The notes beneath the pieces are model-generated. The model saw nothing but the letters and a program-made list of their open reading frames with translations. It was not told the origin of the DNA and searched no databases. The position numbers were made by a program, and so were the translations under genes. DNA of 10,593 nucleotides from Pseudobacteriovorax sp. (GTDB lineage Bacteria; Bdellovibrionota_B; Oligoflexia; Oligoflexales; Oligoflexaceae): positions 1-10,593 of the forward strand of contig JBNKNM010000198.1 in the NCBI GenBank assembly GCA_050293845.1, written 5' to 3'. Shown here piece by piece: positions 3,008-10,593 of the stretch (position 1 is the stretch's first letter; every line of letters begins with the position of its first letter).

Positions 3008-3601
3008 TCAATAAAACTCGAAAATAACTGGCCAGTCTTTAACTTCCTCGATGCCATGTAATCTAACAATAGACTTAAAATCGTTGATATATAAGCCTCT
3101 TGTTTGAAACGAAAGTACTTCCATGGGATTAATTAGTTTTTTATTGTAGGTCATTTGTAAGTGTAGATGGGGACCTGTAGAACTTCCGGTGCTACCCACA
3201 GTGCCGATAGTGTCACCAACACTTACTTTTTGCCCCCAGTGCACGTAGATCTTTTGTAAGTGGCCATAGGTTGTATTGAGTGCGAACCCATGTTCGATGA
3301 CAACTGTGTTGCCAAAGCCACGTGCTGGCCCTGCCCAGTTAATCCAACCGTTACTAACAGCTTTGACCTCTGTTCCTTTCTCAGCCGCGATATCAATTCC
3401 GTAATGAAAACCGCCCTTCCTGGGACCATAGGGAGATGAAATGCTCCCTTCTGTAGGCCAAGAAACTAGAATAATTGGCTTTTTTGAAAGATAACCAGAT
3501 ACAGAGCTAGATTTTGCATGAGTTTTAGCGGTTTGCGATACATTTACCATGATGAGGCTAGTGACAAGAGCTATAAACAACATTGCATAAACGAATTTCA
3601 T
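3008..3601 (-). CDS. M23 family metallopeptidase (peptidoglycan endopeptidase), exported or membrane-anchored
   Basis: N-terminal hydrophobic signal. WP..G.ISSPYGPR, HYGID (HxxxD), YGHL and STGPHLH (HxH) show intact Zn ligands. GGGAG RBS upstream. Confidence 0.95.
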   Translation of the reverse strand: MKFVYAMLFIALVTSLIMVNVSQTAKTHAKSSSVSGYLSKKPIILVSWPTEGSISSPYGPRKGGFHYGIDIAAEKGTEVKAVSNGWINWAGPARGFGNTVVIEHGFALNTTYGHLQKIYVHWGQKVSVGDTIGTVGSTGSSTGPHLHLQMTYNKKLINPMEVLSFQTRGLYINDFKSIVRLHGIEEVKDWPVIFEFY

Positions 3602-4550: not shown

Positions 4551-4948
4551 GGTAATTACAAGCAACCGTACAACTTGTAACCATCCTCGGTTTATTCATT
4601 AAGATCACTGATATTCTTAAGCTACCTAAGCGTCATGTTGTTTAAATACTGGGTGACTATCTGTATTTACTTCAACATGTCTTTATAGAGAATTTTTGGT
4701 TTGGAATTGCTTGAAGGAAGAAAAAATTTACATCCCTTGAAGGCCGGTGAGTTCATAGGTTTATTTAAAAAAACTGAGGATTAAGGTCATAATTTCTTGA
4801 TTTACTCCGAGAATTACACAGAATGATAAGAGATCGATCGGGTTACAAATAAGAAAATATACATAGAGTTTCGCAGATATCGTAGCTATGCTTGGAAGTT
4901 CAATATCAAACTAAAGGTTTGCTGGACATATATATAGAGGAGCTAAGG

Positions 4949-5524
4949 ATGGGAAAATTTTTTGTTAGTTCATTTATAGGTTTAATTTTAATGTGTTTCG
5001 GTCCATTTCAGCTTTGGGCAGCACAGTATTCCTTTGTGTACGACAAAAAAATAGAGATACCTCCTTTTGGACCAGCTGATGCTGGGATTATATATATCGA
5101 AGGTATTGCTGGTAATGTTACTAGTATCACACTAAAACTATTTGGTTACTCACATCGTTTTACCTACGAAACTATGATCGCCATCAGCAATCCTTATGGC
5201 GATACGACTTTGATTTGGTCAGGCATTACCTGTAATATCCCTTATGACGCACCTATAGACCTAGTTTTTACTGACGCGAGTCAGGAGGAATTTGGTAGAA
5301 AAAATTGCTCATCTGGGACTTATACTCCTGGACTTGAATGGGCGCAGCGATCATTTACAATCCCCTTTGCACCAACTCCGCCATTCAATTCCAGCCTAAA
5401 CAAGCTCGTTGAAGCAGAAGATCTCAATGGACGGTGGATACTTTGGGCGGAAGACTTTACCCAAGGTGATGGTGGCTACATTGAGAGGTTCGAACTAGTA
5501 TTTGAAACATCACCGGAAGCCTGA
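4949..5524 (+). CDS. Secreted protein consisting of a proprotein-convertase P-domain-like beta-sandwich
   Basis: ATG at 4949 follows GAGGAG; signal peptide MGKFF...LWA. P-domain pattern VTSITLKL..YSH.F.....I.NPYG and NGRWILWAEDFTQGDGGYIERFELVF. Confidence 0.75.
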   Translation: MGKFFVSSFIGLILMCFGPFQLWAAQYSFVYDKKIEIPPFGPADAGIIYIEGIAGNVTSITLKLFGYSHRFTYETMIAISNPYGDTTLIWSGITCNIPYDAPIDLVFTDASQEEFGRKNCSSGTYTPGLEWAQRSFTIPFAPTPPFNSSLNKLVEAEDLNGRWILWAEDFTQGDGGYIERFELVFETSPEA

Positions 5525-5653
5525 ATTCAACTTCAGACTGGGTCTACACAATAGTCACAACGCCGTAAAACCTGCTGCCTAAGGAGCTAGTTGCCTAGTC
5601 CTAAACGTCTTCCGATGCGGGCGGGAACGCTGCGGCTGACTTGCTACAGGAAT

Positions 5654-5687
5654 CCCCCACTAAAAAGAGTTAGCAGTTTAGTGGGGG
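5654..5687. terminator. Stem-loop, probable terminator between convergent genes
   Basis: Perfect 11-bp inverted repeat CCCCCACTAAA (5654-5664) / TTTAGTGGGGG (5677-5687), 7 nt past the stop of the LRR gene. The U-tract is weak. Confidence 0.65.
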
Positions 5688-5694
5688 GAAACCG

Positions 5695-6873
5695 TCAATT
5701 ACCGCAAGCAAGAACCCGCTTTTCTTCAAGCTGATGGGGGTAACGAAAGCCCCACTTTTCTTTAAGACAGCTTTCAGAACCCACAAGGAACTTTAATACT
5801 CTAGTCGTTGATACCTGGAAATCCTGTAGGAAGACCCTTAATGGAGTGGGGTCAATTATATTACCTTTAATACGTAGAAGCTTAAAATTCTTAGCATTAA
5901 AAATACTCGTCAAACCACTGAGGTCGAGGAGAGTATTTTCATCGCCTTGAAACTCCAAATTCAACTCTTCTAGTTGCTTGAGACCAATTTTATTGGTTCG
6001 TCTTAAGGGGGGTACGAGCTCAATTAAGTTATAGGCTAGATCCAAAAACCTCAAGCTAACAAGGTTGCGTAGATTTTTGATATTGACGACTTTATTCTGA
6101 CGAAGGTTTAATGCTCTCAATCCTGGCAATCCAGCGATAGGATCAGGATTCACTATATTAAAATTCTCATTATTGGCAGGATCGGGAGCTAAGGAAAAAA
6201 CTATTTTAGTTTTAAACAGCATATAAGCATCCTCACAATTTTCTTGTGGGGGCCGGTGGTCTTGAGGATAAGGAAGTCGTACACGAATGGCTGCTACAGT
6301 ATTCTGTATGTCCTGTAACCAAGACTCGAAGAACAGCTCATTGGGAAAAAGTTCTTTAAGGTTAATAGCTTCAACATAATCCTCAGCAATGACACAGTAA
6401 TTGTAAAAAGTCCAATATTCTTCGAATTCGTCTGGTGTCGGAACCGGATCTTCTGGAGCAGAGGGGGCTTCACCCTCGCCGTCTCCTTCACCTTCGCCGT
6501 CTCCTTCACCTTCGCCATCTCCTTCTCCTTCTCCTTCTCCTTCTCCTTCTCCTTCGCCATCTCCTTCACCTTCGCCGTCTCCTTCACCTTCAGAAGGTTG
6601 GGGTTCTTGGGGTTGGGGAAAGGCTTCATCGAATTCGTCACCAGCATTGGGAGCTGTGATGGGGCTAGCAATGTCGCCATCTGGAGTTCCTCCCCCATCA
6701 TAGGGATTACCAATGCCAGCATTGGCATTGCTACTGTCAACGGGAGGAGTAGCAGAAAATCCAGGATCTTCCTCTTCGATCATTTCTTCAGTTTTATTGC
6801 ATGCAATGGATAGAGTAAAAAGCACAGCCAGTAGTGTTACAAATATTGTCCGTGGGGTGCGGGATATTAGCAT
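5695..6873 (-). CDS. Lipoprotein with an acidic Pro/Gly/Glu linker and a C-terminal leucine-rich-repeat domain
   Basis: AGGAGG RBS, lipobox SIAC and a (GE/GD)n tract. LRR units LRALNLRQNKVVNIKNL, LRFLDLAYNLIE, LEELNLEF and FKLLRIKGNII, preceded by a Cys-containing cap (FYNYC...CEDAY). Confidence 0.85.
   Translation of the reverse strand: MLISRTPRTIFVTLLAVLFTLSIACNKTEEMIEEEDPGFSATPPVDSSNANAGIGNPYDGGGTPDGDIASPITAPNAGDEFDEAFPQPQEPQPSEGEGDGEGEGDGEGEGEGEGEGEGDGEGEGDGEGEGDGEGEAPSAPEDPVPTPDEFEEYWTFYNYCVIAEDYVEAINLKELFPNELFFESWLQDIQNTVAAIRVRLPYPQDHRPPQENCEDAYMLFKTKIVFSLAPDPANNENFNIVNPDPIAGLPGLRALNLRQNKVVNIKNLRNLVSLRFLDLAYNLIELVPPLRRTNKIGLKQLEELNLEFQGDENTLLDLSGLTSIFNAKNFKLLRIKGNIIDPTPLRVFLQDFQVSTTRVLKFLVGSESCLKEKWGFRYPHQLEEKRVLACGN
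6468..6592 (-). repeat. Coding tandem repeat of 6-bp and 18-bp units encoding EGEGDG/EG
   Basis: On the + strand, (ccttct)n is flanked by ccttcgccRtctccttca units. All units are multiples of 3 and preserve the frame. Confidence 0.9.
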
Positions 6874-6991
6874 TCATACCTCCTTGTATCCCTCAAAGCG
6901 GGCTAGAAAGCCATAAAAGGGGCTATTTCGAACTTTCAAAAAGAAGAATTCTTGGCTAAATATTGTCATAGTAAAGCTTTAAAAGCTATCA

Positions 6992-7270
6992 TTACCTCAT
7001 AACGCAAAAAGCATGCGTATTGCCATTACGCTGCATAAATCCAGCTAGTTTCCAGCCTTTCCTGCCGTATCTATCTAATACTTGTTCCATTTCTTGATGA
7101 GAATAGTCAAATGTTGGCTCGCAAACGTATTCATATTCCAAAAAGTTTAACAGCTGTTTTCCTGGAATTACAGATCCATCTGCAGTTGCCTCATCCTTTT
7201 CTACTGTGATGCATGACTGTAGAAGAGTCATAAAGAGTATGAAATATATTATCTTCCTGGATCGGTTCAT
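6992..7270 (-). CDS. Small lipoprotein with a DUF4177-like domain
   Basis: GGAGA RBS, lipobox LQSC, and the DUF4177-like pattern EYEYV...EQVLDRYGRKGWKLAG...F. Confidence 0.7.
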   Translation of the reverse strand: MNRSRKIIYFILFMTLLQSCITVEKDEATADGSVIPGKQLLNFLEYEYVCEPTFDYSHQEMEQVLDRYGRKGWKLAGFMQRNGNTHAFCVMR

Positions 7271-7302
7271 GATTATATCTCCAAAATGCCCTGTTTTAAG
7301 GC

Positions 7303-7965
7303 CTAAAAAATCCTGAGCACCACGCGACGGTTCTCCGTTTGGTTTTTCGCTATAGGATTTCCATCTTGATCCCGGTTAGGAAGTTCGGGACGGTGCTCTC
7401 CAAACCCCCTAGCTTCGCAGTTCTCCTGGCAGATATCCATAGCCTCCAGGATCTCCAGAACCGCTAGTGATCTCAAGGTCGATAAATGCCAATTCGAACG
7501 GAATTCCTTACTCTCAATCGGATTGTCGTCAGTATGACCTTCTACGGCGAGGTGGGCATAGCTAGGCAGCTTACCGAGCTTTTTGGAAAACTCCTGCAGT
7601 AATTTTTCGGCTTCAGGCTTGACCCTTGCTTTCCCTGAATCAAACAGCAATCCACCTAAGAAACTGATTTGAATACTCTTGTCATCAACTTTAATTTTTA
7701 CCTGATTTTCAAGGTTACTATCCTTCATGTGTTCTTCTAAATCGACAAGAACAGATGCGATACTTTCATCCTCCGTTTTACCCTGAAAGGCTTGTTTGAT
7801 GCGCTCGAATTTAATGGCTGATATGTTGGTCGCTGATATGAGCAAGGCAAAGAAAACTAGTATAATGGTCATCATATCACTATAACTAGTCTGCCATGTT
7901 TCACTACTCGACTTATCGAGTTCTGCAAGAATGTCGAGATGCTTAGGGCTATATTTTTTTGACAT
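7303..7965 (-). CDS. motB: MotB/PomB-family stator B subunit
   Basis: TM motif WQTSYSDMMTIILVFF with the conserved Asp30, plug-like helix KFERIKQAF, and OmpA-like peptidoglycan-binding domain (LLFDSGKA, VEGHTDD, SNWHLSTLRS, NRRV). Confidence 0.93.
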   Translation of the reverse strand: MSKKYSPKHLDILAELDKSSSETWQTSYSDMMTIILVFFALLISATNISAIKFERIKQAFQGKTEDESIASVLVDLEEHMKDSNLENQVKIKVDDKSIQISFLGGLLFDSGKARVKPEAEKLLQEFSKKLGKLPSYAHLAVEGHTDDNPIESKEFRSNWHLSTLRSLAVLEILEAMDICQENCEARGFGEHRPELPNRDQDGNPIAKNQTENRRVVLRIF

Positions 7966-8713
7966 CTAAATCTCTCAATCGTGTTTTCATATAAAACGAA
8001 GGCTTTTTCTGTTCGACATGTTCCAACCAGTACAAAAGATTGGTATGACTTTTGATATAAGCTGTTTTGCGCTTCTCAACAGAATGAATCAGTGGTACGA
8101 ACAATATATTACCTATAAATATCCCGTAGAGAGTTGTGATAAGGGCTAGAGACATATTTGAGCCTAGGGTATCAAAGTCTTTTAAATCACCTAATAACCG
8201 AATCAAGCCAAGCAAAGATCCGAACATACCAATGGCTGGAGCCAAAGCAGATATTTGTTTTAAGGTTGCAATATCCTGGTTTAATTTGACGACTACTTTT
8301 TGTATCTGAAATTCTAAAATATCTTTAATATCGTGAATAGGAACATTGATAGCCAGTTTTGTTGCTACGATATTCCAAATTCTAGGCATCTTGCGTCGTT
8401 TCACCTCATTACGGAGTTCCTCACCGCCATCGCTATGGTAAATATCTACAAGACCCTTGAGGTAGGTTTCCGATAACATAATCTGCTTCGATTGCTTATG
8501 GGAAGAGTAGGTAAGACAAAATAAGATGAATCGACGGGCATCGTTGACATCCATTAAGACGATTGAAACCCCCAAGATAACACCTGTGACCATAATAAGC
8601 GAAGGAATATGAATCACTCCCCCGAGTACAGACATATTTTCTACGGCCATACTGTAATATATAGCGGATGCCATCAAAGTGAATCCTAGGGAATTCTTAA
8701 TTAAACTTATCAT
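7949..8713 (-). CDS. motA: MotA/PomA-family stator A subunit (divergent)
   Basis: Motifs PSLIMVTG, APAIGMFGSLLGLI, LGSNMSLALITTLYG and NILFVPL. 254 aa; overlaps motB by 17 bp. Confidence 0.92.
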   Translation of the reverse strand: MISLIKNSLGFTLMASAIYYSMAVENMSVLGGVIHIPSLIMVTGVILGVSIVLMDVNDARRFILFCLTYSSHKQSKQIMLSETYLKGLVDIYHSDGGEELRNEVKRRKMPRIWNIVATKLAINVPIHDIKDILEFQIQKVVVKLNQDIATLKQISALAPAIGMFGSLLGLIRLLGDLKDFDTLGSNMSLALITTLYGIFIGNILFVPLIHSVEKRKTAYIKSHTNLLYWLEHVEQKKPSFYMKTRLRDLDVKKI

Positions 8714-8735: not shown

Positions 8736-10424
8736 TTAAACGAGGGCTCTGTATGTTTTTAGAATCTCATTTTGAGCTTGTTCGATCTCAGCAGTATTAA
8801 CTTTTACATCCTGCATCTTATAACTATCTATAAGTTGGCTGCGCATATCACCTAGCATTTTTGTCAGTTTTTTATCCATATTATGTTTGGCTAATGCTTT
8901 GCTGAGTACTTCGTTAGATATCCGTTGAAAAACCTTTTTGCCGATACCAATATCTAGTCTCAGAAAATCTTCGAAACTAATCAGGTACTTTTCAAATGCT
9001 GTGGGGACAGTTCCGTATTGCTGTGCCAGCTTTTTAATAACGTTGACACAATCAGTATCGGAATCAAGAAATAACAATTCCACAGCACTAGGATCAAGCA
9101 CATCGACTACGGCTTCATCTTTAAATTTATCAAATATAGCTCTTAACTTAATATCAAGCTCAGCTTTTAAGGCTCTATGTTCAGATGACATGTCTTCAAT
9201 AGTGCCACTTTCTGCTTGTAAATGCATTCTGCGTAGAAATTTAGCTTTATCTTCTAGTGAGATAACTTTATTGAGCTCTTCCATTTGAACATCACTCAAG
9301 TAAGGTGCAATAACTAGCAGGGTCTCTATGCAATTCGATTCTTTAGTTACTAATTGCGCTATATGGGAACCTGAAAGCTGACCGATGTAACCAAAAGGCT
9401 TCGATTCCACTTCTTCATTCAGGCGTATATATCGCTGGAGGTCACGGATGATCTTATCGAATAAGGCAATGCTGTCAGTTCGAGAAGATTCACTGCTACT
9501 TTCAACCTTTTCCAACGACAATAATTTACGGAAGTAGCTCTTCAAAGCTGGAGTTTGGATAGCGTTATAGAAATTTAGTTTGTCTTCAGTTTTGAGGCTT
9601 TGTAAAAATATTCTGGTGATAAGTGGTGATTGGTTGAGAATATCTACAATCTTATCAAGTTTTTTATTAATAAGTTGAGCATTTTGTTTTTTCTCATTGC
9701 CTGTGTCCATGGGGCTTGAGGGCGGCACATGGGTGTCTTCTTGACTACGTCGTTTAAAGTAAAAGCGTAGCCCAAGAATTGCTGCAATAAATAGCATTAG
9801 CAGTAAAAAGATATAAAATAAATCGATGGCCGATCCAGCTCGGCGATTGACATAGCCTAGTACCCACTCCCAGGGAGAGTCGTAGCTAAGTTGTGGTTCC
9901 AACGCGAGTTCAATCGTATTCAACGTGCCCTTATCACCAAACATTATATCAATCATCTCTTGGGTGGTTATGATGGCTAATTGTTTTTTAGATGAGTCCA
10001 GTGATTTATCAAGTATCAAGCGGACTGATACACTGATGATTTCGGAGCGATCTTTAAAAATAAACCGAGATTTTTCTTTGCGTTTTATCTTTGAAGCCTG
10101 ATCTGGTTTTGATTCTATCTGCTCAAAACCCGGCAAAGTAGCAGATTTTTTTTGAATATCTTGTTCCGATGAATCGTTCTCAAGTTCTCCTTCCAGGACG
10201 ACTTTTTCACGAAAGTTCTTCAATTGAGCATTAGCAAATATACGATAGGATTTTTCACTTAAAAATAGGTTAATGTCGTCAGTAATTTTCTGTAAAAACC
10301 TTTCTTCAATCGATTGCGAAGTTTGAACGTTTGAGTTTTTGATTTCCCTGGCTATGGCGGGTGACATCGCCAGTAAAATGAATATCGAGAAAATAATTTC
10401 TATTTTTCGAATATTACCTATCAT
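8736..10424 (-). CDS. FliF-FliG-like fusion protein: signal peptide, FliF RBM3-like periplasmic domain, one TM, then FliG N/M/C-like cytoplasmic domains
   Basis: FliG-M-like PFGYIGQLSGSHIAQLVTKE...LLVIAPYLS...KAKFLRRM. FliG-C-like LISFEDFLRLD...VFQRISNEVLSKAL...EIEQAQNEILKTYRAL. FliF-C-like IEERFLQKI...EIISVSVRLILD. TM at about aa 201-223. Lies directly upstream of motAB. Confidence 0.75.
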   Translation of the reverse strand: MIGNIRKIEIIFSIFILLAMSPAIAREIKNSNVQTSQSIEERFLQKITDDINLFLSEKSYRIFANAQLKNFREKVVLEGELENDSSEQDIQKKSATLPGFEQIESKPDQASKIKRKEKSRFIFKDRSEIISVSVRLILDKSLDSSKKQLAIITTQEMIDIMFGDKGTLNTIELALEPQLSYDSPWEWVLGYVNRRAGSAIDLFYIFLLLMLFIAAILGLRFYFKRRSQEDTHVPPSSPMDTGNEKKQNAQLINKKLDKIVDILNQSPLITRIFLQSLKTEDKLNFYNAIQTPALKSYFRKLLSLEKVESSSESSRTDSIALFDKIIRDLQRYIRLNEEVESKPFGYIGQLSGSHIAQLVTKESNCIETLLVIAPYLSDVQMEELNKVISLEDKAKFLRRMHLQAESGTIEDMSSEHRALKAELDIKLRAIFDKFKDEAVVDVLDPSAVELLFLDSDTDCVNVIKKLAQQYGTVPTAFEKYLISFEDFLRLDIGIGKKVFQRISNEVLSKALAKHNMDKKLTKMLGDMRSQLIDSYKMQDVKVNTAEIEQAQNEILKTYRALV

Positions 10425-10447: not shown

Positions 10448-10593
10448 CTAAAAATTTTTCTTCACATTTTCATTCTGCCGTTTTCTCGCTTGCATGATTT
10501 TCTGAACTTGGCTCTTCAGAGTTTTTTGCCCCTTAATGACTGCGAGAATTTCTGGCTGGTCGGGATTTTGAGCTAAGGATTCCATCCATACTT
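10448..10593 (-). CDS. 3' end of an upstream gene (partial), probably a TPR-containing protein
   Basis: The frame from 10591 reads VWMESLAQNPDQPEILAVIKGQKTLKSQVQKIMQARKRQNENVKKNF* with TAG at 10448-10450. W.ESL..NPDQPEI resembles the end of a TPR. It ends 23 bp before the fusion gene. Confidence 0.6.
   Translation of the reverse strand, partial: VWMESLAQNPDQPEILAVIKGQKTLKSQVQKIMQARKRQNENVKKNF

Follow-up and report, generated by a model that had tools for sequence, protein, structure and literature searches.

The textbook example of a rotary machine is the flagellar motor, whose MS-ring is composed of about 33-34 subunits of FliF, a protein whose periplasmic part is flanked by two transmembrane (TM) helices. 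In FliG, the Arg of the torque helix is trailed by an acidic pair, and FliM is bound through an EHPQR-type motif. To our knowledge, every FliF/FliG rotor described so far encloses a type III export apparatus. The two proteins have been joined by engineering in Salmonella and Vibrio, and the resulting single chain is reported to assemble rings (PMC6079021, PMC10941966, PMC11481574). Our full-text literature search returned only such engineered FliF-FliG fusions; a natural fusion with its own stator was not found described in it.

We analyzed contig JBNKNM010000198.1 of Pseudobacteriovorax sp. (assembly GCA_050293845.1), a stretch of 10,593 nt that we refer to as the window (Table 1). One of its open reading frames (ORFs), protein P0001, begins with a segment that resembles a signal peptide, after which come one periplasmic domain, one TM helix and, at the C-terminal end, a FliG-like cytoplasmic part. 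The earlier note had delimited this minus-strand ORF correctly as a single frame of 562 aa and had interpreted it as a natural single-chain FliF-FliG fusion. The ORF is real and conserved, and not a product of chance: a search of 1.84 billion proteins yielded a fusion family of 61 representative clusters, and the full-length protein is modelled with confidence (pLDDT 85.9). The conservation counts given below refer to 53 aligned members of this family. An assembly or frameshift artefact merging two genes was rejected because the full-length architecture recurs across these 53 proteins. A natural two-gene form was rejected as well; the sole split copy (G008, L034) looks like a frameshift, with frames that overlap just past the TM helix and a second part that has no start codon. 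A word-indexed homology search with the family alignment (A2) returned four proteins, all previously known, and a metagenome scan with a 16-row family alignment (A4) matched one locus (L086). Searching the PDB sequences with a four-sequence profile of the fusion returned only chance interleukin-3 rows (E = 0.5). The Atlas neighbour clusters supply a lead: 22% and 55% of their members carry Pfam YscJ_FliF_C alongside FliG_M and FliG_C.

Table 1. Features of the window, listed in the direction of transcription; residue numbers refer to the fusion protein
Feature	Position	Strand	Remarks
TPR-type periplasmic protein, 3' end (upstream)	10448..10593	(-)	Open frame ending ...KKNF*; cut by contig end
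FliF(RBM3)-TM-FliG fusion protein P0001	8736..10424	(-)	One ORF, 562 aa
Signal-peptide-like N-terminus, residues 1-25	10350..10424	(-)	A-I-A precedes R26
Periplasmic RBM3-like domain, residues 33-175	9900..10328	(-)	Alpha-beta-beta-alpha-beta; FliF tops structure searches
Insertion between RBM strands 1 and 2, residues 77-120	10065..10196	(-)	Collar position; low pLDDT
Single TM helix, residues 195-225	9750..9842	(-)	Kyte-Doolittle segment 195-225; model helix 199-228
Compact helical module, residues 241-340	9405..9704	(-)	Four short and one long helix (model); replaces FliF-C/FliG-N
FliG middle and C-terminal domains, residues 344-562	8739..9395	(-)	Pfam, hhalign and structure matches
MotA-type stator A subunit, 254 aa	7949..8713	(-)	PF01618, 70.1 bits; start 22 bases past fusion end
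MotB-type stator B subunit, 220 aa	7303..7965	(-)	17-base overlap with motA; plug, OmpA-like peptidoglycan-binding domain
Small lipoprotein-like ORF, 92 aa	6992..7270	(-)	Weak DUF4177 match, E = 0.0013, below cut-off
Lipoprotein-like LRR protein, 392 aa	5695..6873	(-)	LRR_8 and LRR_4; acidic Gly-Glu/Asp repeat linker

The periplasmic domain was modelled alone (pLDDT 85.3) and compared with 48,161 PDB representative chains. The first three ranks were held by chains of the FliF MS-ring: 6scn_A (Z = 11.5; 91 aligned residues, rmsd 2.9, 19% identity), 8z5v_A (Z = 11.4) and 8z4d_1 (Z = 10.3). The best non-FliF fold was OsmC-like (Z = 9.0), and the OsmC-like and MamM-like chains, at Z 8-9, lay just 2-3 units under FliF. 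Other ring-building motifs were ranked lower (PrgK, Z = 8.2; EscJ, Z = 7.7; SpoIIIAG, Z = 6.5). With Foldseek, all 18 matches at E <= 1e-3 were FliF (E = 1.7e-7 to 3.8e-5), and SpoIIIAG (E = 8.3e-3) and PrgK (E = 1.7e-2) followed with weaker matches. The domain aligned structurally with residues 234-437 of Salmonella FliF, and the sequence identity to FliF in the structure alignments is 13-20%. The corresponding sequence signal is weak. The family profile of residues 28-232 matched an alignment of 29 FliF sequences, collinear at the start of RBM3, with a probability of 60% (P = 8.5e-5, against P = 0.038 for reversed FliF and P = 0.36 for FliG used as controls). Over the hhalign comparisons with these 29 sequences, P ranged from 8.5e-5 to 3.3e-3 and the probability from 10 to 60%, and the periplasmic domain alone reached 9.7%. 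This signal needed the 29-FliF alignment, as the family profile gave none against the single FliF of the same genome (probability 0.8%). Pfam YscJ_FliF (PF01514) matched neither the fusion nor the family members, YscJ_FliF_C (PF08345) did not match the fusion protein even at E up to 10, and a FliF search of the genome itself returned a canonical FliF on C169 only. Complex prediction with four copies of residues 32-180 reached scores of 0.26 and 0.28 (mark 0.42), which argue neither for nor against a ring.

The insertion between the first two strands occupies the very position of the collar in FliF and SpoIIIAG. It contains an L-P-G-F motif (residues 97-100) in which P98 and G99 are invariant (53/53 members), and in FliF proteins of the phylum an invariant [IV]PG motif occurs twice within this insertion (29/29 sequences). 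No further domain separates the hydrophobic segment at the N-terminus from the TM helix, the periplasmic residues amounting to about 170 in total, and there is therefore no room for RBM1/RBM2. The N-terminus itself consists of a basic n-region and about 11 hydrophobic residues, followed by A-I-A before R26. Using an in-house heuristic, which is not a dedicated predictor, a signal-peptide-like start was found in 42 of the 53 members. Relative to the two TM helices of FliF, the fusion presents one clear internal TM helix, supported by both model and hydropathy and followed by basic residues (KRR), and an N-terminal segment that resembles a cleavable signal by the same heuristic. An RBM3-like domain with a collar-like insertion, the absence of RBM1/2 and a single TM helix had all been proposed from the sequence, and these proposals are confirmed by the fold, by the best structural matches to FliF RBM3/collar and by the single domain without PF01514 or PF08345. 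The cleavable signal peptide said to replace TM1 remains a candidate, with which the heuristic and its recurrence across the family agree.

The C-terminal part of the protein corresponds to the middle and C-terminal domains of FliG by Pfam, by hhalign and by structure, in agreement with the FliG portion of the earlier claim. Pfam FliG_C matched residues 474-561 (24.8 bits; cut-off 23.3), and FliG_M did not match the fusion protein itself. Across the family, matches were found for FliG_C in 46, MgtE_N in 25 and FliG_M in 17 of the 53 members. With hhalign, residues 340-552 aligned to FliG 107-320 (probability 97.5%), and the comparison with 19 FliG sequences reached 98.2% (E = 3.2e-14). FliG structures comprising the middle and C-terminal domains matched this part with Z scores of 12.1-12.5, and FliG-C in its MotAB-bound form (8ucs_H) with Z = 11.5 and an rmsd of 1.7 A. 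Two residues, N504 and R528, are present in 53/53 members. R528 aligns with the Arg of the 'SERAG' stretch of FliG and we take it to be the equivalent of the torque-helix R281 of E. coli FliG. The acidic pair is partly kept, position 533 being E or D in 25/53 members. The FliM-binding motif has not been kept: KESNCIE stands at the aligned positions, with E362 in 21/53 members and no conservation at the others.

The region joining the two parts was less faithful to its proposed description. A FliF C-terminal helix pair running into a FliG-N-like segment had been claimed for residues 236-345, and we could not recover either. The profile of these residues gave no signal against FliF (probability 6.5%, and at the FliF N-terminus) or against FliG (0.3%). 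Pfam FliG_N matched 2/53 family members, and one structural row only reached FliG-N (8vib_G; model residues 278-562 to FliG 6-316, Z = 9.2); Foldseek alignments with full-length FliG spanned 320-330 columns. The compact module in place of FliF-C/FliG-N falls far short of the flagellar co-fold in size. We also built a tree of the FliG-like parts with a quick method, in which the 53 fusion proteins were combined with 19 canonical FliG and a single long paralogue. Eighteen canonical FliG and the long paralogue formed one starred clade among deep branches of the fusion family, and one canonical FliG row (L046) was a long outlier. Since this tree is unrooted, the direction of descent is unreadable. 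Overall, these results support the reading as one natural polypeptide, in which a TM helix connects an RBM3-type periplasmic domain, matched best by FliF in an unbiased fold search, to a cytoplasmic part whose FliG middle and C-terminal domains are detected by sequence and structure.

The genes directly downstream, in the same operon, encode a MotA/MotB pair with the features of a flagellar-type stator. All PDB sequence matches of the MotA-type protein (9/9) were flagellar MotA or PomA, and the MotB-type protein presents a MotB_plug match (42.6 bits), an OmpA match (43.7 bits) and the conserved TM Asp in SYSDMM. The plug is described as specific to flagellar-type stators in a preprint (bioRxiv 10.1101/2024.07.22.604496). 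The best NCBIfam rows were MotP, MotA and PomA for the first protein (best 67.4 bits; MotP cut-off 394) and MotB, MotD and MotS for the second (121.3 bits; MotB cut-off 301). All scores lie below the equivalog cut-offs, and the two proteins represent a divergent subfamily. The MotA loop residues at the classical charged-pair positions differ in the one HMMER alignment covering them, and the rotor-stator interface may therefore differ. MotA-MotB lie directly downstream of the fusion in 10 of 12 distinct loci (the window, L025=L006, L024, L026, L029, L030, L031, L032, L034 and L083), the loci without adjacent MotAB being L028 and L033.

In related loci, the gene immediately preceding the fusion codes for a signal-peptide-bearing protein of 171-215 aa; sub-threshold TPR matches were found in 7 of the 8 such ORFs scanned. 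A putative outer-membrane protein is also encoded upstream, and a PDB profile search with the upstream protein of about 300 aa returned no match. On the other side, the 92-aa ORF has syntenic counterparts of 90 aa in L006 and 95 aa in L028, and L006 encodes a 389-aa LRR protein at the position of the LRR gene, which in the window contains a tandem repeat (6468-6591). Matches in a promoter and terminator scan were at or under shuffled expectation. Neither the window nor the related loci contained other flagellar genes, and no FliM/FliN genes were found near the fusion.

The source genome encodes one normal FliF and two normal FliG elsewhere and holds further paralogous cassettes. FliF is also encoded by the majority of the carrier genomes. 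Two draft genomes, G018 (93% complete) and G010 (84%), carry the fusion and gave no match to FlhA, FliF or canonical FliG. Three to four paralogous copies of the fusion were found in one genome, against a single FliF. The earlier note had inferred that a type III export apparatus is probably not housed in the ring; the missing RBM1/2, the association with its own MotAB and not with flagellar genes, and these two genomes without FlhA, FliF and FliG all support this view.

Taken together, we think it likely that the fusion is the rotor half of a rotor-stator module that is independent of the flagellum and has no type III export gate. The RBM3-like domains would form a ring in the periplasm, like the S-ring of FliF, and this ring would place a ring of FliG-like domains beneath the membrane. 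Peptidoglycan-anchored MotA5B2 units would then push and turn the FliG-like ring by ion flow. Because RBM1 and RBM2 are missing, the ring would lack the export gate, and because the FliM-binding motif is not conserved, it would bind no FliM/FliN switch. More speculatively, mechanical work at the outer envelope might be done through a coupling of its periplasmic face with the TPR protein, with the putative outer-membrane protein encoded upstream and with the lipoproteins encoded downstream.

Alternatively, the protein may be a membrane-tethered FliG-like adaptor that forms no rotating ring, acting as a monomer or small oligomer that recruits or gates MotAB or is dragged by it. The 5:2 motor would then drive just one partner, in the manner of ExbBD with TonB or AglRQS with GltG/J, and all non-flagellar 5:2 motors known to us act on single elongated partners. 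Such an adaptor would agree with the minimal module found in place of FliF-C/FliG-N and with the divergence of the FliM-binding motif, from which no C-ring scaffold would be expected. We nevertheless judge it unlikely, since the best periplasmic matches are specifically the ring-forming RBM3/collar of FliF, with other ring-building motifs lower in the list, since the insertion falls exactly at the collar position of FliF and SpoIIIAG, and since FliG-C superposes so closely in its MotAB-bound form.

It is far less probable that the protein serves as an accessory or alternative rotor part of the ordinary flagellum of this bacterium. The canonical FliF and the two canonical FliG of the genome, and the FliF of most carriers, would allow for such a role, but the fusion gene comes with its own MotAB and no other flagellar genes, offers no RBM1/2 to house the export gate, is carried by two genomes without detectable FlhA, FliF and FliG, and reaches three to four paralogues in one genome where FliF is single. 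We give just as little credence to the view that the periplasmic domain has no relation to FliF and represents a generic alpha/beta sandwich, in which case the likeness would be convergent and the protein would be a FliG-domain membrane protein only. The RBM is indeed a common alpha/beta arrangement, as the Z scores of the OsmC-like and MamM-like chains illustrate, identity to FliF is low and Pfam recognizes no FliF domain. However, FliF holds the top three ranks and every significant Foldseek match, the profile signal exceeds its controls, the insertion shares its Pro-Gly motif with FliF, and the order of RBM3, TM and FliG is that of FliF followed by FliG; the Atlas clusters mentioned above, as a lead, point the same way.

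The rotor-stator module that we favour can be extended, tentatively and with more doubt than confidence, to an autonomous rotary envelope machine that could do without type III secretion. An RBM3-TM-FliG ring turned by its own flagellar-type MotAB would perform TPR/outer-membrane-coupled work at the surface, with several paralogous motors per cell, and would represent either a relative of a pre-flagellar core or a radical re-use. If the module is what we propose, rotor and stator can form a functional unit of their own, made of an S-ring module, an anchor, FliG domains and its own stator. Its occurrence in genomes without flagellar genes would bear on the origin of the flagellum, and on whether rotation or secretion came first. 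It would also constitute a simpler object for torque studies, with one rotor protein, two stator proteins and no switch, and in predatory Bdellovibrio-like bacteria it may power a process at the surface or in the envelope.

Among the known systems, the fusion shares with FliF the topology of RBM3, the insertion between strands 1 and 2, the TM helix directly after the domain and a hydrophobic-Pro-Gly motif. It differs from FliF by the absence of RBM1/RBM2 and of the two Pfam matches, by the signal-peptide-like segment found in place of TM1, by a domain that has about 60 residues fewer than the 234-437 segment of Salmonella FliF and by C-terminal FliG-binding helices that are not recognisable. 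With FliG it shares homologous and superposable middle and C-terminal domains, the invariant Arg aligned to the torque-helix Arg and the adjacency of MotA/MotB. Unlike FliG, it is covalently tethered to the membrane, its N domain is reduced or unrecognisable and its FliM-binding motif is not conserved. The engineered fusions are likewise single FliF-FliG chains, but they are laboratory constructs that comprise full-length FliF with three RBMs and operate inside a flagellum, whereas the natural gene has RBM3 only and its own stator. SpoIIIAG, PrgK/EscJ and CdsD/YscD present a ring-building-motif fold, which in SpoIIIAG also bears an insertion; SpoIIIAG and the injectisome inner-ring proteins are clearly weaker matches, none of them linked to FliG or MotAB. 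Finally, ExbBD-TonB, TolQR-TolA, AglRQS, GldLM and ZorAB resemble this locus in that an inner-membrane ion motor is encoded with envelope partners and presumably energises the outer envelope. We know of no FliG-type rotor domain partner in any of these five systems; here, in contrast, the stator is of the flagellar type, with a plug in the B subunit and matches to MotA/PomA, and its partner is of the FliG type.

The fusion protein belongs to a family that can be recognized by sequence. A word-indexed search recovered three relatives (40–53% identity), and HMMER, run exhaustively over 1.84 billion representatives, yielded 61 proteins at E ≤ 1e-3 (37 at ≤ 1e-10 and 18 at ≤ 1e-30), most of them 540–600 aa long and aligned over their full length. 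We aligned 53 of the 64 ids (alignment A2), leaving out 11 sequences that were fragments or matched only in part (P0009, 11, 17, 32, 45, 47, 48, 54, 56, 58 and 64). Four residues (P98, G99, N504 and R528) are invariant in 53/53 members, and L97, F100, F344 and G345 are near-invariant. The protein consists of an RBM3-like periplasmic domain, one transmembrane (TM) helix and a FliG-like cytoplasmic half. Its first 25 residues resemble a Sec signal peptide, as in 42 of the 53 members (rule-of-thumb sequence scan), and one internal hydrophobic helix (about residues 195–225) is followed by KRR.

The FliG part is homologous to FliG. FliG_C was the only Pfam match of the fusion protein (residues 474–561; 24.8 bits; cut-off 23.3); across the family, FliG_C was matched by 46/53 members, MgtE_N by 25/53, FliG_M by 17/53 and FliG_N by 2/53. 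The family profile aligned over positions 340–552 with positions 107–320 of the 333-aa FliG from the genome of the window (97.5% probability; E = 5.7e-12), and it also aligned with 19 FliG sequences of the phylum (98.2%; E = 3.2e-14). The AlphaFold model (pLDDT 85.9), compared with FliG as the earlier note had proposed, matched middle-plus-C structures (Z = 12.1–12.5) and FliG-C bound to MotAB (8ucs_H; Z = 11.5; rmsd 1.7 Å over 80 residues). In the alignment, the invariant R528 matches the arginine in FliG's "SERAG" stretch, which we take to be the torque-helix residue R281 of E. coli. The region of the FliM-binding motif reads KESNCIE and is not conserved across the 53 members.

For the periplasmic half, the best fold match of the predicted structure is the FliF MS-ring protein. 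The model presents a helix (36–51), a strand (60–76), a low-confidence loop (77–120), a strand (121–139), a helix (144–165) and a strand (166–173); as modeled, this topology is a ring-building motif in which an insertion separates strands 1 and 2. Residues 28–200 were folded alone (pLDDT 85.3) and searched against 48,161 PDB representatives and by Foldseek. The first three PDB ranks were all FliF MS-ring chains (6scn_A, Z = 11.5, 91 residues, rmsd 2.9, 19% identity; 8z5v_A, Z = 11.4; 8z4d_1, Z = 10.3), followed by OsmC-like chains (Z = 8.5–9.0); other ring-building proteins ranked lower (PrgK 8.2, EscJ 7.7, CdsD 7.6, SpoIIIAF and SpoIIIAG 6.5). All 18 Foldseek hits at E ≤ 1e-3 were FliF, with weaker matches to SpoIIIAG (8.3e-3) and PrgK (1.7e-2). 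In the whole model, residues 33–175 superpose on Salmonella FliF 234–437. The link to FliF by sequence is weak: Pfam FliF models matched neither the fusion protein nor the family, and hhalign of family columns 28–232 against 29 FliF sequences gave 60% probability (P = 8.5e-5; at the start of RBM3), versus 9.7% (P = 0.0033) for columns 28–180 alone; controls gave P = 0.038 and 0.47 (reversed FliF) and 0.36 (FliG). Both proteins carry a hydrophobic-Pro-Gly motif in the insertion, an invariant LPGF in the family and two invariant [IV]PG motifs in FliF of the same phylum (29/29).

These results largely confirm the observation of the earlier note and support its interpretation of this gene as a natural FliF-FliG fusion with an RBM3-like domain and a TM helix; the FliG-like part recognized here comprises the middle and C-terminal domains. 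The note had also placed a FliF C-terminal helix pair and a FliG-N-like segment at the junction. Residues 241–340 are modeled as five helices, four of them short and one long, a module smaller than FliF-C plus FliG-N. In profile comparisons this module showed no signal (6.5% against FliF, with the match falling at the FliF N-terminus; 0.3% against FliG), and a single structural match reached FliG residue 6 (8vib_G; Z = 9.2), which leaves the junction claim unconfirmed.

Features of the fusion cassette in the window and of related genes in the same genome (G000; C numbers, contigs; L numbers, compared loci)
Feature	Location	Strand	Description
Fusion ORF	8736–10424	minus	562 aa, one long ORF
MotA-type gene	7949–8713	minus	downstream of fusion gene
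MotB-type gene	7303–7965	minus	17-base overlap with MotA-type gene
Lipoprotein-like ORF		minus	92 aa, after MotB-type gene
LRR lipoprotein	5695–6873	minus	392 aa, after 92-aa ORF
Second complete cassette	C98:2874–4514 (L083 2853–4532)	minus	fusion paralogue P0038, 559 aa, about 17% identical
Third paralogue	C80 (L085 1–1200)	minus	≥400 aa, cut by the contig end; signal peptide, TM, FliG_C hit
Long form	C18 (L084 2090–4423)	minus	777 aa; signal peptide, larger periplasmic part, TM

The operon of the fusion gene carries a flagellar-type stator. The MotA-type protein matched PF01618 (70.1 bits), and the MotB-type protein matched MotB_plug (42.6 bits) and OmpA (43.7 bits), with its TM Asp within SYSDMM. 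All nine PDB sequence matches of the A subunit were flagellar MotA or PomA; the top NCBIfam models were MotP, MotA and PomA, and MotB, MotD and MotS, all far below equivalog cut-offs. Twelve cassette-linked MotA proteins share motifs of their own, including a C-terminal W...KP.FY. According to passages of bioRxiv 10.1101/2024.07.22.604496, flagellar stators are distinguished by having a plug together with an expanded cytoplasmic domain, and generic relatives lack the plug.

Full-length matches were found in at least 10 of 131 genomes of the phylum, a minimum drawn from the best 150 matches: G000 (C198, the window, and C98) and G010 twice each, and G042, G035, G043, G053, G018, G074, G011 and G055. 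The fusion occurs without flagellar core genes, as no FlhA, FliF or canonical FliG was found in the carriers G018 (93% complete) and G010 (84%). MotA-MotB lie directly downstream in 10/12 distinct loci (exceptions L028 and L033; the identical L006 and L025 counted once). Directly upstream lies a signal-peptide ORF of 171–215 aa (TPR hits in 7/8 scanned, all below cut-offs), preceded by a protein of ~285–350 aa with an invariant CxxC, whose C-terminal half looks like an outer-membrane barrel (Atlas leads only: LpoB/TolB_N-like, OMP_b-brl). Upstream of the fusion gene, the window retains only the final 47 codons of a gene cut by the contig end. As leads only, the Atlas places neighbor clusters of the fusion in Bdellovibrionota, Pseudomonadota, Balneolota, Myxococcota and Elusimicrobiota; two clusters combine Pfam YscJ_FliF_C, FliG_M and FliG_C, in 22% and 55% of their members. 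An additional, frameshifted copy (L034, G008:C101, 816–2466) is probably not a natural FliF-like/FliG-like gene pair: its reading frame changes immediately downstream of the TM helix, the second part has no start codon, and a frameshift or sequencing error is the probable cause.

The genome of the window encodes one FliF, two canonical FliG and 16 MotA/ExbB-family hits. Its C98 cassette comprises, in order, a 353-aa secreted protein, a 199-aa TPR-like protein, the fusion, MotA (259 aa), MotB (226 aa) and a 309-aa OmpA-like protein. The C80 paralogue follows genes for a TPR lipoprotein and for two secreted proteins, and 4 kb away lies a divergently oriented set encoding MotA, MotB and a PEGA lipoprotein (MotA/MotB at 5259–6694, plus strand). 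The C18 long form has FliG_M and FliG_C clearly above cut-off; no MotAB lies close by, and its neighbors encode a DsbA-like protein and a YkuD-type L,D-transpeptidase. At least nine more genomes of the phylum encode similar proteins (750–890 aa). The best canonical FliG (333 aa; C5, L001 1471–2472, minus strand) has ABC-transporter ATPase genes on one side and a CinA-like gene on the other, surroundings that are not a flagellar operon.

Several other features of the window were observed. The LRR lipoprotein carries a long acidic Gly-Glu/Asp linker encoded by an 18-base tandem repeat (6.6 copies; 6468–6591), and its syntenic counterpart in L006 has a collagen-like low-complexity stretch there. 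Downstream of the cassette, both the window (3008–3601) and L006 (12842–13849) have a same-strand M23 peptidase gene, which may be a member of the same envelope unit. A 210-aa secreted ORF without Pfam match lies on the opposite, plus strand (4892–5524). Positions 1–2600 form a low-GC block (0.30–0.33 vs. 0.41–0.45 around 5000–8000) whose ORFs encode a HAD-glycosyltransferase fusion, a membrane protein resembling lysyl-PG-synthase-TM and an unassigned product of 262 aa; the block may represent a surface-polysaccharide island.

Ring formation, rotation and output of this module are put forward here as proposals. The RBM3-like domains would assemble the fusion protein into a ring, and a peptidoglycan-anchored MotA5B2 would exert torque on the FliG-like ring, giving a rotor with neither export gate nor switch. 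More speculatively, the module might, through its TPR, outer-membrane and lipoprotein partners, do work at the envelope. The main rival to such a rotor is that the fusion protein acts as a tethered adaptor that does not rotate.

Passages of PMC12505986, PMC13277936 and bioRxiv 10.1101/2024.07.22.604496 make no mention of such a fusion. Full-text literature searches turned up engineered FliF-FliG fusions only (PMC6079021, PMC10941966, PMC11481574) and no description of a natural cassette. The fusion module, of which we found no instance in print, is a set of known parts in a new form.
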